From contig JBNJDT010000007.1 of the NCBI GenBank assembly GCA_051745145.1, positions 1-61,711 of the forward strand: a stretch of 61,711 bases of DNA. Reading direction: 5' to 3'. The first letter of the stretch is position 1, and each line of letters opens with the position of its first letter. Origin of the DNA: Elusimicrobiota bacterium (GTDB lineage Bacteria; CG03; SLGR01; JAGXOG01). Under the pieces are notes generated by a model. It did no database searches. It was not told the origin of the DNA and saw only the letters and a program-made list of their open reading frames with translations. Below, in pieces: positions 1,025 to 10,361 of the stretch. The translations under genes were made by a program, and so were the position numbers.

Positions 1025-1501
1025 GTGAATAATAAGATGAAAAAAATCCTTTTAGTAGATGATAATCCTTCTATACGTAGAATAGGGAAGTTTATGCTGG
1101 AAAAAAATTATGAGGTAATAAGTAGCTCTGATGGTCAAGACGGGGTAGATACCGCTAAAAAAGAACTTCCCGACCTCATACTCATGGATGTGCAGATGCC
1201 TGAAATGAACGGTATAGAAGCTACAAAAGCGATTAAGGCCCATCCGGAAACAAAAAATATACCTGTTATCATTGTCTCTGGTCAGGGAAAAGAAACCGAG
1301 GTAATGGAGGGCATGCAGGCCGGTGTCGAAGATTATGTAGTAAAACCTTTTGATGCGGAAGATCTTAATCGTAAGATAAAAAAGTATATAGGTTCCGAAA
1401 CGCCCCCGAAAGAGCCCCAAAAAGGAAAAGGGATTAAGTTAGTTATATCTTTTATAGTTTTAGTTTTATTAGGGTTTTTTATTTTTAAATTCTTAATGTA
1501 G
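1025..1501 (+). CDS. CheY-like single receiver-domain response regulator with C-terminal transmembrane anchor
   Basis: Intact receiver motifs LLVDDN, LILMDVQMP (phospho-Asp), IIVSG, VKPF. C-terminal hydrophobic LVISFIVLVLLGFFIFKFLM. The start could be GTG 1025 or ATG 1037. Confidence 0.9.
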   Translation: MNNKMKKILLVDDNPSIRRIGKFMLEKNYEVISSSDGQDGVDTAKKELPDLILMDVQMPEMNGIEATKAIKAHPETKNIPVIIVSGQGKETEVMEGMQAGVEDYVVKPFDAEDLNRKIKKYIGSETPPKEPQKGKGIKLVISFIVLVLLGFFIFKFLM

Positions 1502-1550
1502 CTAAGTAAATATTTTAAAAGGTAAAAAAAATTAAAATCGGAGACAATAA

Positions 1551-2960
1551 ATGTTATTGACAAAAACGAGGCTTAAATCGGTATTTAAAAAAGCCGGTTG
1601 TATTTTTATGTTTTTCCCGATATTAATATTAGGGATAGCAGGAAATCTGTCTGCTCAAGATTTTATGGAGATAGAACTTGAGAGTAAATTAGAGGATAAA
1701 CTTAAAAGTAAAATTGTTACTTATTTAGGAACAGAGAATGTTATAACTAATATAAATTTTACAATAGAGCAGAAGGAATTAGAAGATATATCCGAAGAAG
1801 AAGAGAGAACTTTACTTCCCGGCATTCCGACAGAAAAAACAATTGATAGCGGTGCCAAAGCGTATCAAAGATTTATAGAAGATATGACGGTAAGTATATT
1901 TATAGGAAAAGAATTATCCCCATCAGAAGAAAATGGGCTGGTAAGTCTTATAGAGGAACTTTTCCCATTCGAAATGGAATTGGGGGAAAACCTTACCATA
2001 AATCAATATTCTCCATCCAGGGGGCTTACAGAGATAAATTTTGTAGCTATAGCAATCGGGGTTTTAAGCCTGGCGCTTATAATAATTTTTTTCGGTCCGG
2101 TTCAGTCTGTATTTTCCAGTATAGATGAAACTATTGCCAGTTTAAGTTCCTCCGAAAGTTCTTCTTCTGCTTCAACAGGCAAAGAGGGAAAAGGTATATC
2201 TACAGCTGCGGGCGGGGATAATGTCAGTGCATCTTCAGCTCCCATGCCGGCTGCCGGAGGTGAAGGAAAAGAAACTTCAGAATCCGGAGCGCGGCCGTTT
2301 AGTTTTATCGAGAAAAAAGATCTTCCGGCGCTGAAGCACATTTTAGAAAAGAAATCCACCGAGGCCACAGCTACTGTATTGTATTCGTTACCCGGTGAAT
2401 TGTCCGGTGACTTATTTTCTTCACTTTCTTCTATGAAACGAAAAAAAGTATTATCTATTTCCCGGAAAATAAGAGAGCCCAAAGATGATATAACTGATTT
2501 GGAAGAGGAAATTAAGTTTAAAGTAAATTACAGTTATGGCGGGGCGGAAAAATTATCGGAAATAGTTCAAAATACCAAACTTTCTACCAGAGAGGAAATT
2601 TTTAAATTTCTGAAAAGCAAGGATAAAAGTTTATTGGAGAAAGTTAAATCCAAAATTTTTCAATTTGAAGATCTGGTTCATTACAGTGAGAAGGATTTTA
2701 ATAATATAGCCCGCAAAGTAGGGGTTAAGAGGATAGCTACTATAATAAATAATATTCCCGGTAAAACAGGAAAACAACTTATGGATAAATTAACCCCTCA
2801 ATTGAAAGCGCTTGCTGTTGAACATTCAAAAGCTTCGCCCGATTTAAATCCAAAACAGCTGGAAAGGGAAAGGGTTCAGCTACAGGATATGTTGTTTCAG
2901 ATGGGGGAACAGGGAATAATTACAACTTTAGAAAATATTAAAGAGGGGAGCGTAGATTAA
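1551..2960 (+). CDS. fliG: FliF ring-domain (RBM3-like)-TM-FliG middle/C-terminal fusion protein
   Basis: Signal peptide (..GNLSA/QD). ELESKLEDKLKSKIVTYLGTENVITNI...LPGIP...IEDMTVSIFI...LSPSEENGLVSLIEELFPFEMELGENLTI resembles the FliF C-terminal ring motif. One TM (FVAIAIGVLSLALIIIFF). FliG motifs RPFSFI, GGAEKLSEI, IFQFEDL (MFxFEDL) and terminal MGEQGII. Confidence 0.75.
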   Translation: MLLTKTRLKSVFKKAGCIFMFFPILILGIAGNLSAQDFMEIELESKLEDKLKSKIVTYLGTENVITNINFTIEQKELEDISEEEERTLLPGIPTEKTIDSGAKAYQRFIEDMTVSIFIGKELSPSEENGLVSLIEELFPFEMELGENLTINQYSPSRGLTEINFVAIAIGVLSLALIIIFFGPVQSVFSSIDETIASLSSSESSSSASTGKEGKGISTAAGGDNVSASSAPMPAAGGEGKETSESGARPFSFIEKKDLPALKHILEKKSTEATATVLYSLPGELSGDLFSSLSSMKRKKVLSISRKIREPKDDITDLEEEIKFKVNYSYGGAEKLSEIVQNTKLSTREEIFKFLKSKDKSLLEKVKSKIFQFEDLVHYSEKDFNNIARKVGVKRIATIINNIPGKTGKQLMDKLTPQLKALAVEHSKASPDLNPKQLERERVQLQDMLFQMGEQGIITTLENIKEGSVD

Positions 2961-3722
2961 ATGGATTATATGAGTATAGCCGGTATGCTGCTGGGGCTGG
3001 GAGCTGTTTATTACACAGCCGTAACCGGAAATATATTATCTATAATATTTAATAAGGTGGCTTTTATACTTGTCTTCGGGGGAACGGTGGGAGCAACTCT
3101 TCTTACTTATCCGTGGAAAATAATAAAAAATTTACCGGGAAGTCTTATGATGATGATAAAACCCCCTGAATTCGATGAGTATTCGGAAATGATCGAGAAA
3201 ATCACTGATTTAGCTAATATAGCTATTTCCAGCGGGGTAGATGAGTTAAATACTCAGCTTGATTCTATAGATGATCCTTTTTTAAAATCTGCAGTAATAA
3301 TGCTTTTAGAGGGGATGGATGAAGAAGATATAGAAGATAACCTGGATACGGAAATAGCAGCGACTTACCAGAGGCATCAGCAGACAATAGTGGCCTGGAA
3401 GTCTATGGGATCGTATGCCCCGGTTTTTGGTCTTCTGGGAACTCTTATAGGTATTGTCCAAATTTTAAGAGATATTTCGGATCCCAGTACTATGGGAGCC
3501 AATATGGCAGTGGCAATAACAACAACTTTTTACGGAATATTTGCCGCCAATTTTATATTTTTACCGGCCGCGGGAAAACTCGAAATTTACAGCCAGGAAG
3601 AATTAACTCTGCGGGAATTACAGAAAATAGGGGTGATTTCAATAAGCAAGGGAATGCTCCCGGTGGTGATACGTAAGAAGTTGGAGAGATTTCTGGCAAA
3701 AAGCCGTAGAGAAGAAAAATGA
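2961..3722 (+). CDS. motA: MotA/PomA-family stator A subunit
   Basis: AFILVFGGTVGATL, IDDPFLKSAVIMLLEG, YAPVFGLLGTLIGIV, AVAITTTFYGIFAANFIFLPAAGKL are characteristic MotA/PomA TM motifs. Confidence 0.95.
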   Translation: MDYMSIAGMLLGLGAVYYTAVTGNILSIIFNKVAFILVFGGTVGATLLTYPWKIIKNLPGSLMMMIKPPEFDEYSEMIEKITDLANIAISSGVDELNTQLDSIDDPFLKSAVIMLLEGMDEEDIEDNLDTEIAATYQRHQQTIVAWKSMGSYAPVFGLLGTLIGIVQILRDISDPSTMGANMAVAITTTFYGIFAANFIFLPAAGKLEIYSQEELTLRELQKIGVISISKGMLPVVIRKKLERFLAKSRREEK

Positions 3723-4348
3723 AACAGAAAAAACCGGAACAGATAAAACCGGTTTGGTTAACTGTATTCAGCGATATTGTAACAAATCTAACTCTTTTTT
3801 TTCTGTGCATGTTCATTCTTCAGATAGTTTCCTCCGGACAAAAAGTCAAAGCTATGGAGGGAGTGGAAGAAAATTTTGGCGAATCGAAAGAAAAGAAAAC
3901 TGGTGAGGAAAAAGAGGAAGCTGAAGATACAGAAAGTGAATGGGTATCGCTGGATACTGAATATCAAAGCGTGAAGATGAAAGATATAATTAGAATTAGA
4001 CTTCCCAGCGATATTATTTTTGACGTGGGCCGGGCTAATTTAAGTTCTCAGGCAAAAAATTTGCTTGATGACTATGCCAGTATTTTAACTACCACAGATG
4101 CGGATATAGTTGTAGAAGGGCATACGGATAATATACCTATTTCTGGGGGAAGCCGTTATGAATCAAACTGGGAATTATCTATGATGAGAGCCTATAATGT
4201 AGCCAATTTATTGACAAAAAGATATAATATTAACCCTGCCCGGGTTATCTCTGTCGGATATAGTCATTATCAACCCCTGGCTCCTAATGATACGCCAGAA
4301 AACAGGGCAAAAAATCGCCGGGTTGATATAAAAGCCATAAGAGGATAA
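3719..4348 (+). CDS. motB: MotB-family stator B subunit, copy 1 (conserved TM Asp present)
   Basis: WLTVFSDIVTNLTLFF TM motif with the conserved Asp. OmpA-like domain VEGHTDN...SNWELSMMRA...NRAKNRRVDI. Overlaps the motA stop (ATGA). Confidence 0.93.
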   Translation: MKQKKPEQIKPVWLTVFSDIVTNLTLFFLCMFILQIVSSGQKVKAMEGVEENFGESKEKKTGEEKEEAEDTESEWVSLDTEYQSVKMKDIIRIRLPSDIIFDVGRANLSSQAKNLLDDYASILTTTDADIVVEGHTDNIPISGGSRYESNWELSMMRAYNVANLLTKRYNINPARVISVGYSHYQPLAPNDTPENRAKNRRVDIKAIRG

Positions 4349-4954
4349 ATGTCTAAATTAAAAACGAAAAAGACTCAGGCAACCGAGGAAGATTCGTGGC
4401 AGCTTATATATATAGCTCTTATGATGGTGATGATGATATTCTTTCTCATAATGTTTATGTTTTATTACATTGAGGGAGAACAGACTATGGCTAAAAATAT
4501 AAATGTAAGTGAATTGTCGGTAGAACAGGTAGAACAGATGAGACAGATAGTAGATAGAGTACAGGATTTGGATATGGGGGAACAGATCAGGCTTATTTTT
4601 GATACCCCTTTAATGTTTGAATCGGGGCGTGCTGAACTTAAAGATGAAACCCCGGGGTTGAAGAATCTGGCAGAGTTTTTAGCAAATATGGAGGGTATAT
4701 ATATTTTAATTGAAGGTCATACCGATAATGTTCCCATGGGAGCCGGAGGGAAATTTGAGAATAATAAAATGCTTTCTCAATACAGAGCTCTGAATATATT
4801 GAGATATTTTGAAGATATTGGGGTGAATTCTTCAAGATTGGTTGCTGTGGGTAAAGGCGAGTATGATCCTGTAGTTCCTAATGATACGCCTAAAAACAGG
4901 GCAAAAAACCGCCGGGTTGAAATAAAACTTTCCCGGAAGAGATTTTTTCAATGA
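4349..4954 (+). CDS. motB: MotB-like protein, copy 2 (TM Asp replaced by Ala)
   Basis: TM segment WQLIYIALMMVMMIFF. OmpA-like domain IEGHTDN...LSQYRA...NRAKNRRVEI. Confidence 0.85.
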   Translation: MSKLKTKKTQATEEDSWQLIYIALMMVMMIFFLIMFMFYYIEGEQTMAKNINVSELSVEQVEQMRQIVDRVQDLDMGEQIRLIFDTPLMFESGRAELKDETPGLKNLAEFLANMEGIYILIEGHTDNVPMGAGGKFENNKMLSQYRALNILRYFEDIGVNSSRLVAVGKGEYDPVVPNDTPKNRAKNRRVEIKLSRKRFFQ

Positions 4955-5778
4955 AATACTTTAAATATATAGTAATTATTATAAGTTTTTTAGCAGCGGG
5001 TGCTGTAGATAAAGGATTTACGTCCGATGAAGTTTTGGATTATAAATTGGAAATTGAAGTTTATCACAAAGGGGGGAACGGGGCATTAATAAATTTTCCC
5101 GTTGGCGGTAATATGCTGATAGATACCGGAAGTTCCCCGGAAATTATAGATAATATAACCCAAAATATATATAAAAAGGATAAATATTATAAATTTATGG
5201 GGACGCTGGGATGGACTCCTAGAATAGACTGGTTGATAATTAGTAATTTATCTTCGAATAGAATAGCTAACATAAGAGACGTATTGAGAAGCTTTGATAT
5301 AAAAAAAATTTATTCTTCGACTAATATACGTAAATTATACGAAGATGATACAATTGTAACACAATCAGTGGTAAGCGATTTGCTTTATGAACTGGGTTTG
5401 AAGGGACAAAGTATACGTCTGTTATCCGATGGAGATAATATAAAATTTCACCAGGGTATGGAGAATTTAGCTTGTAAAATTTTATATCCCCCTGAACCTG
5501 CTGAATCGCACAGGGACAGTAATATATGTATGAAGATTAAATATAATAGAGTTGAAATTATGTATATATCCGAGTTAACTGAAATGCAACAAAATCAACT
5601 TATAAATTCTAAAGGAGAACAGTTAACAGCCGATATACTTATTCATCCTATAGGTATAAGTTCCGAATTTTTGGGAAAAGTAGGCGCCGAAAATTATATA
5701 ACTACCGGTGAGAATAAAAAAATTATAACAGACGGGCATAGAATAACAATAACAACTTTAAGGAGCAATAATGAATAA
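4951..5778 (+). CDS. exported ComEC/Rec2-type metallo-beta-lactamase-fold protein, metal-binding motif degenerate
   Basis: N-terminal signal/anchor. GNGALINFP..NMLIDTG, IDWLIISNLSSNRI (the usual HxHxDH position), SNICMKIKY, LTADILIHP and IITDG match the ComEC MBL fold, but the His ligands are absent. Confidence 0.65.
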   Translation: MKYFKYIVIIISFLAAGAVDKGFTSDEVLDYKLEIEVYHKGGNGALINFPVGGNMLIDTGSSPEIIDNITQNIYKKDKYYKFMGTLGWTPRIDWLIISNLSSNRIANIRDVLRSFDIKKIYSSTNIRKLYEDDTIVTQSVVSDLLYELGLKGQSIRLLSDGDNIKFHQGMENLACKILYPPEPAESHRDSNICMKIKYNRVEIMYISELTEMQQNQLINSKGEQLTADILIHPIGISSEFLGKVGAENYITTGENKKIITDGHRITITTLRSNNE

Positions 5779-6469
5779 AACAATATTAATTATAACTAAT
5801 GAAGAGAATACCGATTCCACAAAAGATTTGCAGAAAAAGCTTGAAGGATATAATTTTAATATTCAAAAATCTACGAATCAAAAAGAATCTCTGAAAATTC
5901 TTGAAAATGAGAAAATTAATCTTGTTATTATAAATAAAGTACTTGAAAAAAATAAATCCTGGAAATTAGCCCAGAAGATAAAGGATATAGACAGATATTT
6001 ACCGGTTGTATATGTGACTGTATCGGAAGAAGAAAAAAATATTGATGTACCTGAAGAAGAGGCTGAACTTTTAGATAAATATACTGACGGAGTGATAAAT
6101 AAACCTTTTATACATAAGATAATATATAAAAAATTATCCAAATTACTTAGAGTGGCAAACCGTTTGAGAGATCTTAAAAAGGTTAAGGATTTCAGCATTG
6201 TAAAAATAGGAACTGCGGCCGGGTTGATGATTATAGTGTTAACTGCAATATTTTATATTTCAATTACCAAATTAAGTCAGGCTCCGGTGACTGAATATGC
6301 TAAAGTTACATTAACCGAAGTATTTCCGTCAATTCATATAATTATATTTTTACAGTGTTTACTGTTTATTATAGCTTTAGTTGCCGGGTGCGTGCTTTTT
6401 TACCGGTCTATAGATACCCGGGTAAATAGTATAGAGAATCTCGTAGTTGATATTTTACAATCCCGATGA
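5771..6469 (+). CDS. pseudo-receiver domain protein with two C-terminal TM helices
   Basis: Receiver-like fold TILIITNEE / NLVIINKVL / PVVYVT / INKPF with Asn at the phospho-Asp position. Two hydrophobic segments at about aa 145-166 and 189-211. Confidence 0.65.
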   Translation: MNKTILIITNEENTDSTKDLQKKLEGYNFNIQKSTNQKESLKILENEKINLVIINKVLEKNKSWKLAQKIKDIDRYLPVVYVTVSEEEKNIDVPEEEAELLDKYTDGVINKPFIHKIIYKKLSKLLRVANRLRDLKKVKDFSIVKIGTAAGLMIIVLTAIFYISITKLSQAPVTEYAKVTLTEVFPSIHIIIFLQCLLFIIALVAGCVLFYRSIDTRVNSIENLVVDILQSR

Positions 6470-6759
6470 GTAAAAAAAATAAATTTAAGAGTGACTTTTG
6501 CGATAAGAAAAGTTATTTTTTAATTATTAGAACTTTAGTTATTCTGGCGATTGTATTTTACGTTTTTAATTTTTTCTATATAAAAACCCTCCAGTTAGGA
6601 TTGCATTCAGAATCTCTTTTATTAAAAGGTAATGTCATTTTTATTGTCTCGATCACAATTGTAACTTTAATAACCCTTATTTTTATTGCAGTGGTTAACT
6701 ATATTATAGCTAAAAAAATAGGGACAATAATTGAAGCCGGTTTAGAAGAGTACTTATAA
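6466..6759 (+). CDS. small membrane protein (2 TM)
   Basis: ATGA overlap with the previous gene; two long hydrophobic stretches. Confidence 0.65.
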   Translation: MSKKNKFKSDFCDKKSYFLIIRTLVILAIVFYVFNFFYIKTLQLGLHSESLLLKGNVIFIVSITIVTLITLIFIAVVNYIIAKKIGTIIEAGLEEYL

Positions 6760-6885
6760 AACTGTTAGCCAGCTAAAAAATAATTTTATCAGACCGGAAT
6801 ATTTAGAATATTTAAAGAAAAATAGTATGCAAAAAGAATACATCTGTAAATTAAACCGCGTAAAAATATTACAGGAGGGAGTAAA

Positions 6886-8004
6886 ATGAAAGACATAGAT
6901 TTCAGGCTGTATACCGCGGCCAGCAACGGAGACACAGAATCGGTAAAGTCGCTGTTGGAGATCCGTGCGGACGTAAATACAACGATAGAGGGAAAGACAG
7001 CGCTTATGAGAGCGGCTATGGAAGGGCACGCCGGTACGGTAAAAACTTTAATAGATGCCGGAGCAAATCTTGAAAAAAGGGATGAGAAGGGCCGGACAGT
7101 TTTAATGAGAGAGGCAAAGAGGGGGAATGCGGATATAAGCCGGCTGTTAATAGAAGGAGGAGCAAACGTCAATGTAAAAGAAAACGGGACAACTGCCCTG
7201 ATGGAAGCCGCCGGTCGGGGACATCGCTATACATTAAAAACCCTTATAAAAGCAGAAGCAAAATTAGAAGAAAAAGATGAAAACGGGTGGACGGCTCTTC
7301 AAAGAGAAGCCAGGAGGGGAAATACCCGGATAGTGGATATGCTTATAGAGGCCGGGGCCAAGGTAAATGTATCGGATTCTAAGGGGGTGACCCCGCTTAT
7401 AAGTGCCTCGCACGAAGGGCACATAGAGACGGTAAAAAGCCTGCTGGACGGGGGAGCGAAGATAGATAAAAAGATAAGTAAAGGGGGAACGGCCTTGATG
7501 GCCGCGGCGTTTAGAGGGCATACGGATATAGTGAGACTGCTTTTAGCCCGGGGGGCGGATGTAAGTATAGAGAACGAAAAAGGGTGGACGGCGCTGAAGA
7601 TGGCTAAAAATCAGGGGCATACGGTAATAGAGTATATATTAAAAGAGGCCGGCGGGTCAGATAATGATTTTAACAGACCGCCGCTGATATGGGCAGTAAT
7701 AAGAGAGAATAGCGAGAAAGTAAAAGAGCTGTTAGAATCGGGAGCCAGGGTGGAAGAAGAAGATGACCGGGGATGGGATGCATTGATGTACGCCATGGAG
7801 GCGGGAAATACCAAGATAGTATCGCTTTTAAAAGAGGCGGGAGCCTCCCTGGATGAAGAAAAGATAAACGAGGTAAAATTAAAAAAGAGCTTATCTGAAT
7901 TGCGCACGGCAGTAACTATGTACTATGAAGTAGAAGGGAATCCGCCAGAGAACCTGGAAGATCTGGTGCCCGAGTATATAGGAAAGTTGCCCGAAGGGGA
8001 CTGG
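6886..8004 (+). repeat. 1,119-bp direct repeat, copy 1 (matches 16266..17384)
   Basis: Sequence appears identical from ATG 6886 to ...GGGGACTGG 8004, offset 9,380 bp. Translations and the antisense shadow ORFs of both copies are identical over this span. Confidence 0.95.
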
Positions 8005-8058
8005 GAGTATGATCCGGAAAATCTGGAAGTTATTACTAAGGATGCCCCTGATTTGTAA
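6886..8058 (+). CDS. ankyrin-repeat protein with C-terminal pseudopilin (GspG-like) domain, copy 1
   Basis: RBS AGGAGG. About 9 ankyrin repeats (GKTALMRAA, GTTALMEAA, GVTPLISAS, GWTALKMA...). C-terminal LSELRTAVTMYYEVEGNPPENLEDLVPEYIGKLP. Confidence 0.9.
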   Translation: MKDIDFRLYTAASNGDTESVKSLLEIRADVNTTIEGKTALMRAAMEGHAGTVKTLIDAGANLEKRDEKGRTVLMREAKRGNADISRLLIEGGANVNVKENGTTALMEAAGRGHRYTLKTLIKAEAKLEEKDENGWTALQREARRGNTRIVDMLIEAGAKVNVSDSKGVTPLISASHEGHIETVKSLLDGGAKIDKKISKGGTALMAAAFRGHTDIVRLLLARGADVSIENEKGWTALKMAKNQGHTVIEYILKEAGGSDNDFNRPPLIWAVIRENSEKVKELLESGARVEEEDDRGWDALMYAMEAGNTKIVSLLKEAGASLDEEKINEVKLKKSLSELRTAVTMYYEVEGNPPENLEDLVPEYIGKLPEGDWEYDPENLEVITKDAPDL

Positions 8059-8183
8059 AATAGTTTCTATATAAACGTACCCCCTAATTTTTTTCAGTAC
8101 TTTATTTTATTGAATAATAGATAGATAAAAATAGAAGTAAATTTTATATATATTAAAAAAAAATTTGGAAAAAGTGGGGGTTA

Positions 8184-8212
8184 TTGATAGTATTACATTG
8201 AATGTATATAAT
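8184..8212 (+). promoter_or_regulatory. putative sigma70 promoter of the first cargo/barrel pair
   Basis: TTGATA (8184-8189), 17 bp spacer, TATAAT (8207-8212). Confidence 0.6.
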
Positions 8213-8261
8213 CTTTTAATAAAGTTATTTGAGTTTAATAATATTTATCAGGAAAAAAATA

Positions 8262-10361
8262 ATGAAACAATACTTTGTTTTTGTAAGAAAAATAATAAAT
8301 AATAAATTTATTGCAATTACCGGTTTAATTTTTTTACTCTCCTCGAAATTTTTACTGGCCTCCTCGGGTTTAGTTCTTAAATCCACCGTTGTCTATACAG
8401 GCGGAGAAAAAATTATATCTGCGGCTTCAACTTTAGATAGCCGGAATGATTTAATAGTGGTCGGGACAAGCGGAAGTAGCGATACGGATATTAGAATATT
8501 AAAATACGGTAGTGACCTGGTATTAAAATCCAGTAATACTTTCGACAGTGGTGGAGATGACGAAGCTACTTCTGTAGCCGTGGACAGTAATGACAATATA
8601 GTTGTCGGTGGTTCTGCCGACAGTAAATTTTTGGCGGTAAAATTCAGTACGGGTTTAAATGTAATTTCATATTCTACGACTTCAGCAAGCAGTAAATTAT
8701 CCGGGATTGCTATTAATAATAATACCGATAATATTTATGCCGGGTCTGATTGGCGCTGGATAGTAGATTACGGTACTTCAGTTGCAGATGGCATTAAAAA
8801 TATTAGCAGTGATGACGGGGAATCTGAATCAATTCTGCTGAACAGCAGCGGATATATATATGCCGGGGGATCTGTGGGGGGAGATGAGGATGCAATAGTA
8901 AAAAAATATGACAGTTCTTTAACTTCGATTTCCAGCGTAACATATGACAGCGGAGGACTTTATGATAGTGTCATAGATATTTGCCGGGACAGTGAAGACA
9001 ATATTTTTGCTGCCGGTCATCAAGATCAGACCGGTTCATCGAATTCTTACTTTATAAAAAAATATGATTCTAATTTGAGTGCGATTAGTGATACTATACG
9101 GTACAGTGATAACAGTAATAAGTATATAGTTAATTCTTATGAAGACGATATTGGGCTAATTGTTGTTTCGGATTTGAATGAATCGGGCACCAGTGAAGAT
9201 ATTCATATAAGAAACTACAATTCCAATCTGCGTTTAAAGGACAGTTATGATTTGGATACCGGAAGTAGCGACGAGCTGCCGGCCGATGTAACTGTTGATT
9301 CGGAAGGGGGGATATATGTAGTAGGAACAGTGGACAGCACAAATACTGTAGTAGCTAAATTTAATTATGAATATTCCCCTCTAATAATAGATTCTATTAC
9401 CGAAGGAAAGGTGGGGGAGAATAACGAATTGACTATATCGGCAAGTAATATTCCCGTATCCGCAAAAGAAGATATCGCGGTCACCTTCACCGGGGAAGAT
9501 ACTGAAAATTTTCAGGTGACTGTAAGTTCAATTAATTCCTCTACAATAGATCTTCAGGTGGATATACCCGGGGATGCCAAGCTGGGAAATAAAGTGGCAG
9601 TTGTAGAGGATCTTTTGCATTATGATACGGATTCAACAGATTTTTCCGTTGTTCAGGAAGAATATGTTGATATAACCGAGGATACGACTATTACGGCGAA
9701 TACCGAGCAGGGAGCTCTGGAACTGGGGTTCTTAAAGAATTCTCTGATAGAAAATTCTCACATAACTATCTCTCTTATAGATAAAAGCGATGCGCCGGAG
9801 GCACCTGATGATATAAAACTTTCCGACATGATTTTTAAAGTCCAAGCCGATCCTTTAGGTCGCCCGGAAAAGTATCCCGTTCTTAAGATGAATTATACAG
9901 AAAATAATTTTGATGATCTGGATAAAGATAAATTATCTGTTGTATATTATGATGACGCCGGCAATGGCTGGGTCCGTCCGGCTGATACTTATAAGGATGC
10001 GGATTCCGGAAATATTATTACTTATATTACAAATTTCGGCATATTTGCCGCCGCCGAGAGTAAAGAAGAGTCAACCGAAGATATTGTTGTATATCCCAAT
10101 CCCTACAAGCCTGCCTCGGGAGGAAAATACGACAATACAGATTTTGGGGAAGGTATTGTTTTTTCCGGTGTGCCCGATGGAGCATCCTTAAAAATATTTA
10201 ATGTGGTGGGGGAAATTGTCCATGATGCCTCCCCTGCTGACAGTACGTATATCTGGAATACCGAGCTGGATAATGGCAAGCTGGCTCCCAGCGGGTTGTA
10301 TGTCTATTTGCTGACCGGGGGATCGGAAGATATAAGGGGGGAGGTATCGATAGTAAGATAA
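8262..10361 (+). CDS. secreted beta-propeller (SBBP-like) surface protein with T9SS-like/FlgD-Ig C-terminal domain
   Basis: Signal peptide. Repeated 'D.A..V.VDS.dNI.v.G ... KY(d)S.L' blades. C-terminus VVYPNPYKP...LKIFNVVGEIV...IWN...GKLAPSGLYVYLL...GEVSIVR. ATG 8262 is preferred over TTG 8229. Confidence 0.8.
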   Translation: MKQYFVFVRKIINNKFIAITGLIFLLSSKFLLASSGLVLKSTVVYTGGEKIISAASTLDSRNDLIVVGTSGSSDTDIRILKYGSDLVLKSSNTFDSGGDDEATSVAVDSNDNIVVGGSADSKFLAVKFSTGLNVISYSTTSASSKLSGIAINNNTDNIYAGSDWRWIVDYGTSVADGIKNISSDDGESESILLNSSGYIYAGGSVGGDEDAIVKKYDSSLTSISSVTYDSGGLYDSVIDICRDSEDNIFAAGHQDQTGSSNSYFIKKYDSNLSAISDTIRYSDNSNKYIVNSYEDDIGLIVVSDLNESGTSEDIHIRNYNSNLRLKDSYDLDTGSSDELPADVTVDSEGGIYVVGTVDSTNTVVAKFNYEYSPLIIDSITEGKVGENNELTISASNIPVSAKEDIAVTFTGEDTENFQVTVSSINSSTIDLQVDIPGDAKLGNKVAVVEDLLHYDTDSTDFSVVQEEYVDITEDTTITANTEQGALELGFLKNSLIENSHITISLIDKSDAPEAPDDIKLSDMIFKVQADPLGRPEKYPVLKMNYTENNFDDLDKDKLSVVYYDDAGNGWVRPADTYKDADSGNIITYITNFGIFAAAESKEESTEDIVVYPNPYKPASGGKYDNTDFGEGIVFSGVPDGASLKIFNVVGEIVHDASPADSTYIWNTELDNGKLAPSGLYVYLLTGGSEDIRGEVSIVR

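Follow-up and report, generated by a model that had tools for sequence, protein, structure and literature searches.

A conserved second MotB, often lacking the ion-binding aspartate, in an apparently non-flagellar rotor-stator cassette of Elusimicrobiota

In current models of the ion-driven 5:2 motors (MotAB, PomAB, ExbBD, TolQR, GldLM and ZorAB), the two B chains are taken to be identical and their Asp residues to work alternately. What could a second, dissimilar B chain without this Asp do in such a motor? The question is raised by a locus on contig JBNJDT010000007.1 of an Elusimicrobiota bacterium (assembly GCA_051745145.1), and the whole stretch of DNA analysed, 61,711 nucleotides, is called the window here. 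One motA gene is followed at this locus by two motB genes, and the product of the second, MotB2, has Ala at the position of the conserved Asp. A first-pass annotation of the window, made from its letters and translated open reading frames (ORFs), had suggested either an asymmetric MotA5-B1-B2 stator or a role of MotB2 as a brake or structural subunit. Judged by its sequence and that of its relatives, MotB2 is probably a working, functional second B subunit of the motor. The argument is based on the following features.

1551 to 2960, plus strand: fusion of an RBM3-like FliF domain, a transmembrane (TM) segment and the middle and C-terminal domains of FliG (FliG-MC), 469 amino acids, named "FliGL" (Pfam FliG_C, 1.3e-10)
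2961 to 3722, plus strand: MotA/PomA-type stator A subunit, 253 amino acids (Pfam MotA_ExbB, 6e-27)
3719 to 4348, plus strand: MotB1, stator B subunit, 209 amino acids, with D19 and an OmpA-like peptidoglycan-binding domain (Pfam, NCBIfam)
4283 to 4326, plus strand: tract at the 3' end of motB1, nearly identical to a tract of motB2 (41/44 nt)
4349 to 4954, plus strand: MotB2, paralogous B subunit, 201 amino acids, with Ala23 in the Asp column, a MotB-type helix and an OmpA-like domain
4877 to 4920, plus strand: motB2 partner of the motB1 tract (41/44 nt)

The start of motA abuts the stop of the fusion gene, and its own stop overlaps the start of motB1 by 4 nt. The two motB genes abut, and the stop of motB2 overlaps by 4 nt the start of a gene for a protein of 275 amino acids.

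The loss of the Asp was confirmed from the translations and by BLASTP. MotB1 has the helix ...PVWLTVFSD19IVTNL... and MotB2 the helix ...DSWQLIYIA23LMMVMM..., and the proteins align over nearly their full length (30% identity, E = 2e-32) with W13 against W17 and D19 against A23, so that the earlier reading of W-L-T-V-F-S-D against W-Q-L-I-Y-I-A, with Asp replaced by Ala, is correct. MotB2 is thus without the ion-binding Asp (E. coli D32) that is conserved in the single N-terminal helix of MotB/PomB and that MotB1 has as D19. There is no carboxylate in the membrane helix of MotB2, and no other acidic residue was seen in this helix or in the TM3 and TM4 stretches of MotA (alignment A2). Outside the Asp column the two helices differ at most positions as well, and are not the near-identical helices of the Aquifex type. 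The OmpA-like domain reported for both proteins was recovered with PF00691 (8.6e-19 in MotB1 and 6e-16 in MotB2), and the peptidoglycan-binding motif T-D...R is invariant in both MotB alignments (T125, D126 and R146 in A4; T136, D137 and R157 in A3). With the plug model PF13677, which has a cut-off of 24 bits, MotB1 passes at 26.3 and MotB2 fails at 19.8 (23 in the scan of its own genome, also below). The top NCBIfam matches of MotB2 include lipoprotein or OmpA-type anchors; the MotY model gave 3.3e-11 at 43 bits against a cut-off of 400, which does not make MotB2 a MotY. The match between the 3' ends of the two genes, 41 of 44 nt, was found exactly as first described. In a congener (genome G001) the corresponding tracts are identical at 47 of 78 nt, against 55 of 78 in the window, and the unbroken run is present in the window only. 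Because the tracts of the congener differ at many synonymous sites, the near-identity is specific to the window genome, and a recent short gene conversion within the P-N-D-T-x-x-N-R-A-K-N-R-R-V motif is its likely origin.

Whether MotB2 is a conserved protein was assessed next in relatives. The congener has motB1, motB2 and the gene for the 275-amino-acid protein in the same order (contig 82), and its MotB2 (P0002) is 76% identical to that of the window and keeps the Ala; its motA lies outside the assembly, the contig ending 68 nt after the fusion gene. Nonsynonymous divergence (dN, Nei-Gojobori) between the window and the congener is 0.148 for MotB1 and 0.151 for MotB2; only dN was used, as synonymous sites are saturated (proportion of synonymous differences, pS, 0.76 and 0.79, respectively). 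By this measure MotB2 is under the same strong constraint as MotB1. Within the phylum, the profile of the fusion protein matched in 21 of the 26 genomes examined, including all 14 of high quality, and the four-gene order FliGL-MotA-MotB-MotB was present in eight relatives (20 fetched regions). In this initial set Asp was found in 13/13 rows of the first MotB and 0/10 rows of the second, which had A, S, N or T.

A wider survey, in which one genome per species was scanned with a MotA profile, gave 80 loci. These carry mostly Elusimicrobia or Endomicrobia labels, with six from Clostridia, one from Ignavibacteria and five from Nitrospirota or Thermodesulfovibrio, as labelled in the metagenome-assembled genomes (MAGs). 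The fusion gene lies upstream of MotA in 74 of the 80 loci, and in 71 MotA is followed by a pair of MotB genes whose helices can be aligned, motB2 directly abutting motB1 in most; the other loci comprise six with one MotB only, one with a miscalled start of the first MotB and two that end at MotA. For the 71 complete cassettes the residues in the Asp column (first MotB, second MotB) are D,D in 33, D,N in 24, D,T in 7, D,G in 3, D,S in 2, D,A in 1 and C,D in 1. The first MotB therefore has Asp in 70 of 71 cassettes and the second in 34, being Asp-less in 37, and no cassette (0/71) lacks Asp in both. The C,D pair (L111, positions 7768-9077) is the sole reverse case: its MotB1 has Cys (L-V-L-T-C-I-M-T-N-L), which takes two base changes from an Asp codon, its MotB2 has Asp, and both ORFs are intact. 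The idea that an Asp in the homologues of MotB2 would speak against an Asp-less paralogue is consequently answered both ways, 34 of 71 having it and 37 not, while the suspicion that the gene might be sporadic or decaying is contradicted by its presence in 71 of 80 loci and by a dN in the congener equal to that of MotB1. Separately, it was observed that in four loci (L036 at 6010-6819, L055, L091 and L104) the Asp-less second MotB is placed about 2.5 kb downstream of the first, and that in L036 it has a long C-terminal extension.

The double MotB belongs to one type of cassette, because a paralogous cassette in the same phylum (L125-L128; G001:C1, G019:C10, G017:C74 and G004:C65), in which a long fusion of 650-720 amino acids is followed by several genes and then MotA, has a single Asp-bearing MotB in 4/4 loci examined. 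The MotA of this long-fusion cassette in G001 is 33% identical to that of the window, and no match to the cassette was found in the window's own genome.

Outside these cassettes, the best 120 database matches to MotB2 are mostly MotB of flagellated Bacillota, and as 115 of them have Asp, an Asp-less protein is unusual among MotB-like proteins; the remaining five are the window protein and that of the congener, both with Ala, two proteins with Gly and a truncated one. When 1.84 billion representatives were searched with a profile, 148 new top matches were obtained; 121 of them are 190-300 amino acids long, and within this size class Asp is present in 94 and missing from 21 (16 N, 2 T, 2 S, 1 A). 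Helices were registered in these broad searches by a loose pattern anchored on the F-F motif, and in the profile search two rows scored as F and one as Q were misregistered and contain Asp. Two further MotB-like proteins, P0013 (254 amino acids) and P0091 (247 amino acids), have Gly in the Asp column within G-G-W-A-I-T-Y-T-G-F-I-L-I-L-L-C-F-F, a type of helix unlike that of MotB2. P0122 and P0138 were considered as fused double MotB proteins and rejected, being OmpA-TM-OmpA strings with an Asp-bearing helix and probably gene-calling artefacts.

When 144 rows were placed in a maximum-likelihood tree (IQ-TREE quick, LG+G4), 71 of the 72 second-MotB rows grouped in one clade, with a Shimodaira-Hasegawa-like approximate likelihood-ratio (SH-aLRT) support of 81. 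Only two changes between Asp and non-Asp are needed within it. As read from this tree, MotB2 is an old conserved paralogue, and the loss of Asp is a derived state, distributed by clade, and not the defining trait of the paralogue; the order of Asp loss and gain cannot be read from it, many deep forks being without support. Covariation between the B1 helix and the Asp state of B2 was also considered as evidence and was discounted, the Asp-bearing B2 rows being approximately one clade and so one event.

The helix of the Asp-less MotB2 has a signature of its own. Among 38 rows, W is present in 34, P at W+3 in 34, Y at W+4 in 32, M in 37, and the two residues of F-F in 33 and 38. The Asp column of these rows contains only small, uncharged residues (N 24, T 7, G 3, S 2, A 2), and the column entropies of the helix are as low as in MotB1. 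Thr-Asn at D+3/D+4 is invariant in MotB1 (72/72 rows); in MotB2 the Thr is mostly kept and Ile or Val is found instead of Asn. A core of M-T...L-M-(I/L)-F-F-L is common to the B1 and B2 helices, and the Asp-bearing B2 orthologues resemble ordinary B subunits. Since a plain membrane anchor would not be conserved so tightly, the MotB2 helix probably still packs inside MotA.

If so, which MotA, and in what kind of machine? Two genes of the MotA_ExbB family are present in the source assembly (1.80 Mb in 94 contigs, 92.6% complete), and the second is in an ExbB-ExbD-TonB operon, which upholds the earlier statement that there is only one motA. Its product matches the NCBIfam models for flagellar motor protein (1.7e-53), MotA (1.9e-51), MotP (8e-49) and PomA (1.6e-45), all below the equivalog cut-offs, and both TM prolines of MotA are invariant in alignment A2. 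Matches to MotB_plug in the genome are confined to motB1 and motB2, and the only match to FliG_C is the gene directly upstream of motA. No match to FlhA (PF00771), FliF (PF01514) or flagellin (PF00669) was found in this 92.6%-complete genome, whose incompleteness leaves absence unproven; each of these models matched in four flagellated control genomes. Because these three independent markers gave no match, the only FliG-like protein is membrane-anchored and the operon opens with a FliF-like/FliG fusion, the cassette is, on its gene content, a non-flagellar rotor-stator and not a flagellar stator. As a side observation on MotA, a basic residue, Lys or Arg, stands two or three positions ahead of the invariant Gly (G92) in 10 of the 12 proteins of A2. 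The MotA of the window has Ile-Ser-Ser where these relatives carry the basic residue (residues 86-92), and L021 is also without one. The stretch before G92 is presumably the site of the rotor-contacting Arg (E. coli R90/PomA R88).

The nature of the upstream fusion was examined with a profile of 15 homologues (A1). Positions 243-453 match the FliG-MC structure of T. maritima (1lkv) at E = 4.4e-42, positions 126-181 match Salmonella FliF (6scn) weakly (E = 0.004), and the match to PDB 8z4d is at 6.4e-26. The AlphaFold2 model of the protein, of moderate confidence (mean predicted local distance difference test score, pLDDT, 65.6), starts with an N-terminal helix, followed by a strand-strand-helix-strand unit and another long helix, after which come a disordered linker and the FliG helices; the RBM-like region, whose helix-strand-strand-helix-strand succession agrees with the RBM3 type, sits between two membrane helices, with a pLDDT of 50-82. 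In a Foldseek search with this model the best matches were FliG chains (E about 2e-7); FliF RBM3/S-ring chains came next (E = 5e-3 to 1.5e-2; TM-scores of 0.14-0.17 on the query), followed by SpoIIIAG. PF01514 did not match the fusion protein, and the FliG equivalog TIGR00207 scored 30.5 bits against a cut-off of 226.7, so that the protein is not a FliG of that family. In its N-terminal half, a signal/TM helix and a second TM helix enclose an RBM-like domain, in place of the soluble FliF-binding FliG-N. The FliG half is firmly assigned; the FliF-like half, with one ring-building domain between two membrane helices, is a probable, not a secure, assignment from profile and model. The fusion protein is presumed to be a mini-rotor.

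The cassette resembles the MotA5MotB2/PomA5PomB2 stators of E. coli, Salmonella, C. jejuni and Vibrio in its flagellar-type MotA, in a MotB1 with Asp, plug and OmpA-like domain, and in a FliG-MC partner. It differs from them in having two non-equivalent B genes per MotA, the second Asp-less here, and from flagellar stator systems generally in that neither an export gate nor an MS-ring protein or flagellin turned up in the genome and FliG is fused and without its N-terminal domain. Its proteins also stay under every NCBIfam equivalog cut-off. The gliding motor of Myxococcus, AglR-AglQ-AglS, has one TolQ-like A subunit and two TolR-like B subunits. The Agl proteins belong to the Tol/Exb-like clade and are not known to have OmpA-like domains or a FliG partner. 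The likeness to the Agl motor is that of a non-flagellar motor of the 5:2 family with two different B-type subunits per A-type subunit, whereas the cassette proteins belong with flagellar MotAB. AglRS are listed among the non-flagellar homologues in the main text of a 2025 survey of MotAB and its non-flagellar homologues (mBio 2025, PMC12505986), and the same main text makes no mention of Elusimicrobia, heterodimers or two MotBs. Engineered FliF-FliG fusions of Salmonella and Vibrio (PDB 8z4d), which reportedly still form rings, likewise join an MS-ring protein and FliG in one polypeptide; those fusions are full-length and in a flagellum, whereas the one here is natural, with one RBM3-like domain, two membrane helices and FliG-MC. 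The nearest match in gene order is the motA-motB1-motB2 operon of Aquifex aeolicus (Takekawa et al. 2015, PMC4525482), where one motA precedes two motB genes with diverged periplasmic parts. The N-terminal/TM regions of the two Aquifex proteins are 97% identical; the helices here are diverged with paralogue-specific signatures, one is Asp-less and the context is non-flagellar. A neutral residue in place of Asp has been engineered in MotB D32N and in PomB (PotB) D24N, and Asn is also the commonest residue of the Asp-less MotB2 (24/37). Those were loss-of-function alleles with a dominant-negative effect, whereas MotB2 is natural, selected and placed beside an Asp-bearing partner. Neither an Asp-less MotB paralogue nor a non-flagellar FliF/FliG-MotAB cassette was found to be described in a literature search limited to main texts, with few subscription journals among them.

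How, then, might MotB2 work? In the explanation that we favour, MotB1 and MotB2 would be translated together in roughly equal amounts and would stand side by side in one MotA pentamer (A5-B1-B2), both tied to peptidoglycan. The ion-binding Asp would in this lineage be in MotB1 only, next to its invariant Thr-Asn turn, and MotB2, whose residue at this position is small and uncharged (Ala in the window and Asn, Thr, Ser or Gly in other lineages), would be a permanently neutral partner. One ion site, not two alternating sites, would drive MotA around the stalk, and MotA would push against the FliG-like domain of the fusion protein, which would form a ring in the membrane. The coupling of the genes, the single MotA, the conserved order, the age of the paralogue, the conserved helix, the selection on MotB2, the one Asp always kept, the contrast with the single MotB of the long-fusion cassette and the invariant peptidoglycan-binding motif speak for such a heterodimer. 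Mixed B1-B2 dimers are to be expected when there is a single MotA and translation is coupled, unless something excludes them, and A5-B1-B2 is therefore favoured, with a rough probability of 0.45 for the heterodimeric stalk. We are very confident of the descriptive part of the account, that is, how the genes are ordered and conserved, the selection acting on MotB2, the helix without a carboxylate, the intact OmpA domains and the missing flagellar markers. More tentative than the stalk itself is the proposal that the stator is obligately asymmetric, with B chains that divided the work long ago and a single Asp in about half of the lineages.

Several observations weigh against the heterodimer. 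The support of the B2 clade is only moderate (SH-aLRT 81), and an Asp-bearing B2 clade (31 rows, SH-aLRT 97) is nested among Asp-less rows, which implies a regain or several losses. Asymmetry of the ion site does not define the B pair, because 34 of the 71 cassettes keep the Asp of the second MotB, 33 of them together with that of the first. The plug match of MotB2 is under the Pfam cut-off. E. coli MotB D32N is dominant-negative (bioRxiv 10.1101/2021.01.07.425829), and by analogy a neutral partner may poison a stator rather than work in one. For Aquifex (PMC4525482), the MotB chimeras were paired with MotA one at a time in a flagellar motor, and each gave slight motility. Finally, that the two MotBs are never both Asp-less, with the reverse case L111, is equally expected if the two form separate homodimers of which at least one conducts; L111 was for this reason rejected as evidence for the heterodimer. 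The asymmetric stator of the first-pass annotation thus agrees with the gene coupling, the single MotA and the conserved Asp-less helix, and shares its explanation of the counts with separate homodimers.

Such homodimers would be two stators sharing one MotA. A5(B1)2 would conduct and turn, and A5(B2)2 would be inert, serving as a brake, a clamp, a placeholder or an anchor elsewhere in the envelope; where B2 keeps its Asp both forms would be active, as in Aquifex. The separately paired Aquifex chimeras are a precedent, and the retention of at least one Asp per cassette (0/71 lacking both), L111 included, fits as well as it does the heterodimer. A stator with Asn for Asp still engages FliG, the crosslinks of PotB D24N to FliG being even stronger (bioRxiv 10.1101/2021.01.07.425829), the dominant-negative effect of MotB D32N is in line with an inert form, and the neighbouring receiver and kinase genes could set the balance of the two. 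Nevertheless, coupled translation of B1 and B2 with one MotA would give mixed dimers unless these are prevented, and nothing obvious in the shared core M-T...L-M-(I/L)-F-F-L would keep B1 and B2 apart. An inert competitor made in equal amount would also be costly, and the Aquifex helices, at 97% identity, are a poor parallel for helices that have diverged with paralogue-specific signatures. On balance a pair of stators is the main alternative to the heterodimer, unlikely without being far-fetched. It is a good deal less probable that MotB2 stands outside the MotA pore as a peptidoglycan-bound scaffold, in a role like that of MotY/T-ring or FlgT, for the FliF-like ring or a downstream periplasmic partner. 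A helix without a carboxylate, a plug score below the cut-off, lipoprotein and OmpA-type anchors among the top NCBIfam matches with a weak one to MotY, and the second MotB about 2.5 kb away in one subgroup, with the C-terminal extension of L036, would all suit a scaffold. Against it, the MotB-specific W, Y, M-T and F-F are kept across phyla at B1-like entropies; moreover, the Asp-bearing B2 orthologues look like ordinary B subunits and the gene abuts motB1 in most cassettes. The loss of a residue that is essential in every studied MotB might, in the last resort, mark motB2 as a decaying, functionless duplicate. This was refuted as far as sequence analysis can do so, and is given practically no chance: the ORF is intact and the Ala kept in the congener, its dN is the same as in B1 at saturated dS, 37 cassettes from MAGs with the labels of several phyla have an Asp-less orthologue, and the peptidoglycan-binding motif is invariant.

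The motor genes are part of a run of eight genes packed on the plus strand at 1025-6759, with overlapping or abutting starts and stops in the list of ORFs and translations. The other members of the run are as follows.

1025 to 1501, plus strand: receiver-domain protein with a hydrophobic C-terminal tail, first in the packed run (Pfam Response_reg, 9.1e-30)
4951 to 5778, plus strand: exported protein of 275 amino acids without a family match (no Pfam or NCBIfam match)
5771 to 6469, plus strand: receiver-like protein with membrane helices (Response_reg, 1.4e-6, below the cut-off)
6466 to 6759, plus strand: membrane protein of 97 amino acids at the end of the packed run, overlapping the preceding gene

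No terminator-like site was found on the plus strand between 1025 and 6759 in a promoter/terminator scan that was itself at chance level (39 promoter-like sites vs 28.7 expected and 8 terminator-like sites vs 5.9 expected). The motor genes are bracketed by two receiver-domain proteins with hydrophobic C-terminal segments (1025-1501 and 5771-6469). In G001 a copy of the first receiver protein, 76% identical, lies upstream of the FliF/FliG fusion gene, and receiver-domain or histidine-kinase genes adjoin several of the related cassettes. These flanking genes are a hint that the motor may be controlled by phosphorylation. The gene 3' of the second MotB in ten relatives encodes, by Pfam, a protein containing tetratricopeptide repeats (TPR) in six, a histidine kinase in three and a protein without a match in one. 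The exported 275-amino-acid protein is specific to the genus, with a homologue 3' of motB2 in the congener only. ESM Atlas features relate it to the metallo-beta-lactamase (MBL) fold, as in MBL-fold/ComEC-type hydrolases, with a score of 0.94, which is a lead only. At the presumed site of the H-x-H-x-D-H motif it reads S-N-L-S-S-N-R, and it may be catalytically dead.

Both motB genes probably go under the database names "flagellar motor protein MotB" or "OmpA family protein", as other search matches do, and such names conceal the pair. The cassette is a natural, conserved system in which the B chains differ and one of them is often Asp-less, and it allows a direct test of whether rotation can be driven from one ion site or whether an inert B subunit is a built-in brake. 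If the heterodimer is real, a single ion site would drive the MotA ring, with roughly half as many ions spent per turn as in a flagellar stator, the 5:2 motor family would gain its first natural 5:1:1 member, and the cassette would be a natural experiment on the need for two alternating Asp residues in rotation. One fused FliF/FliG, one MotA and two MotB would make a minimal rotor-stator set in flagellum-free bacteria, and this set bears on the origin of the flagellar motor and on the other uses to which such motors are put.

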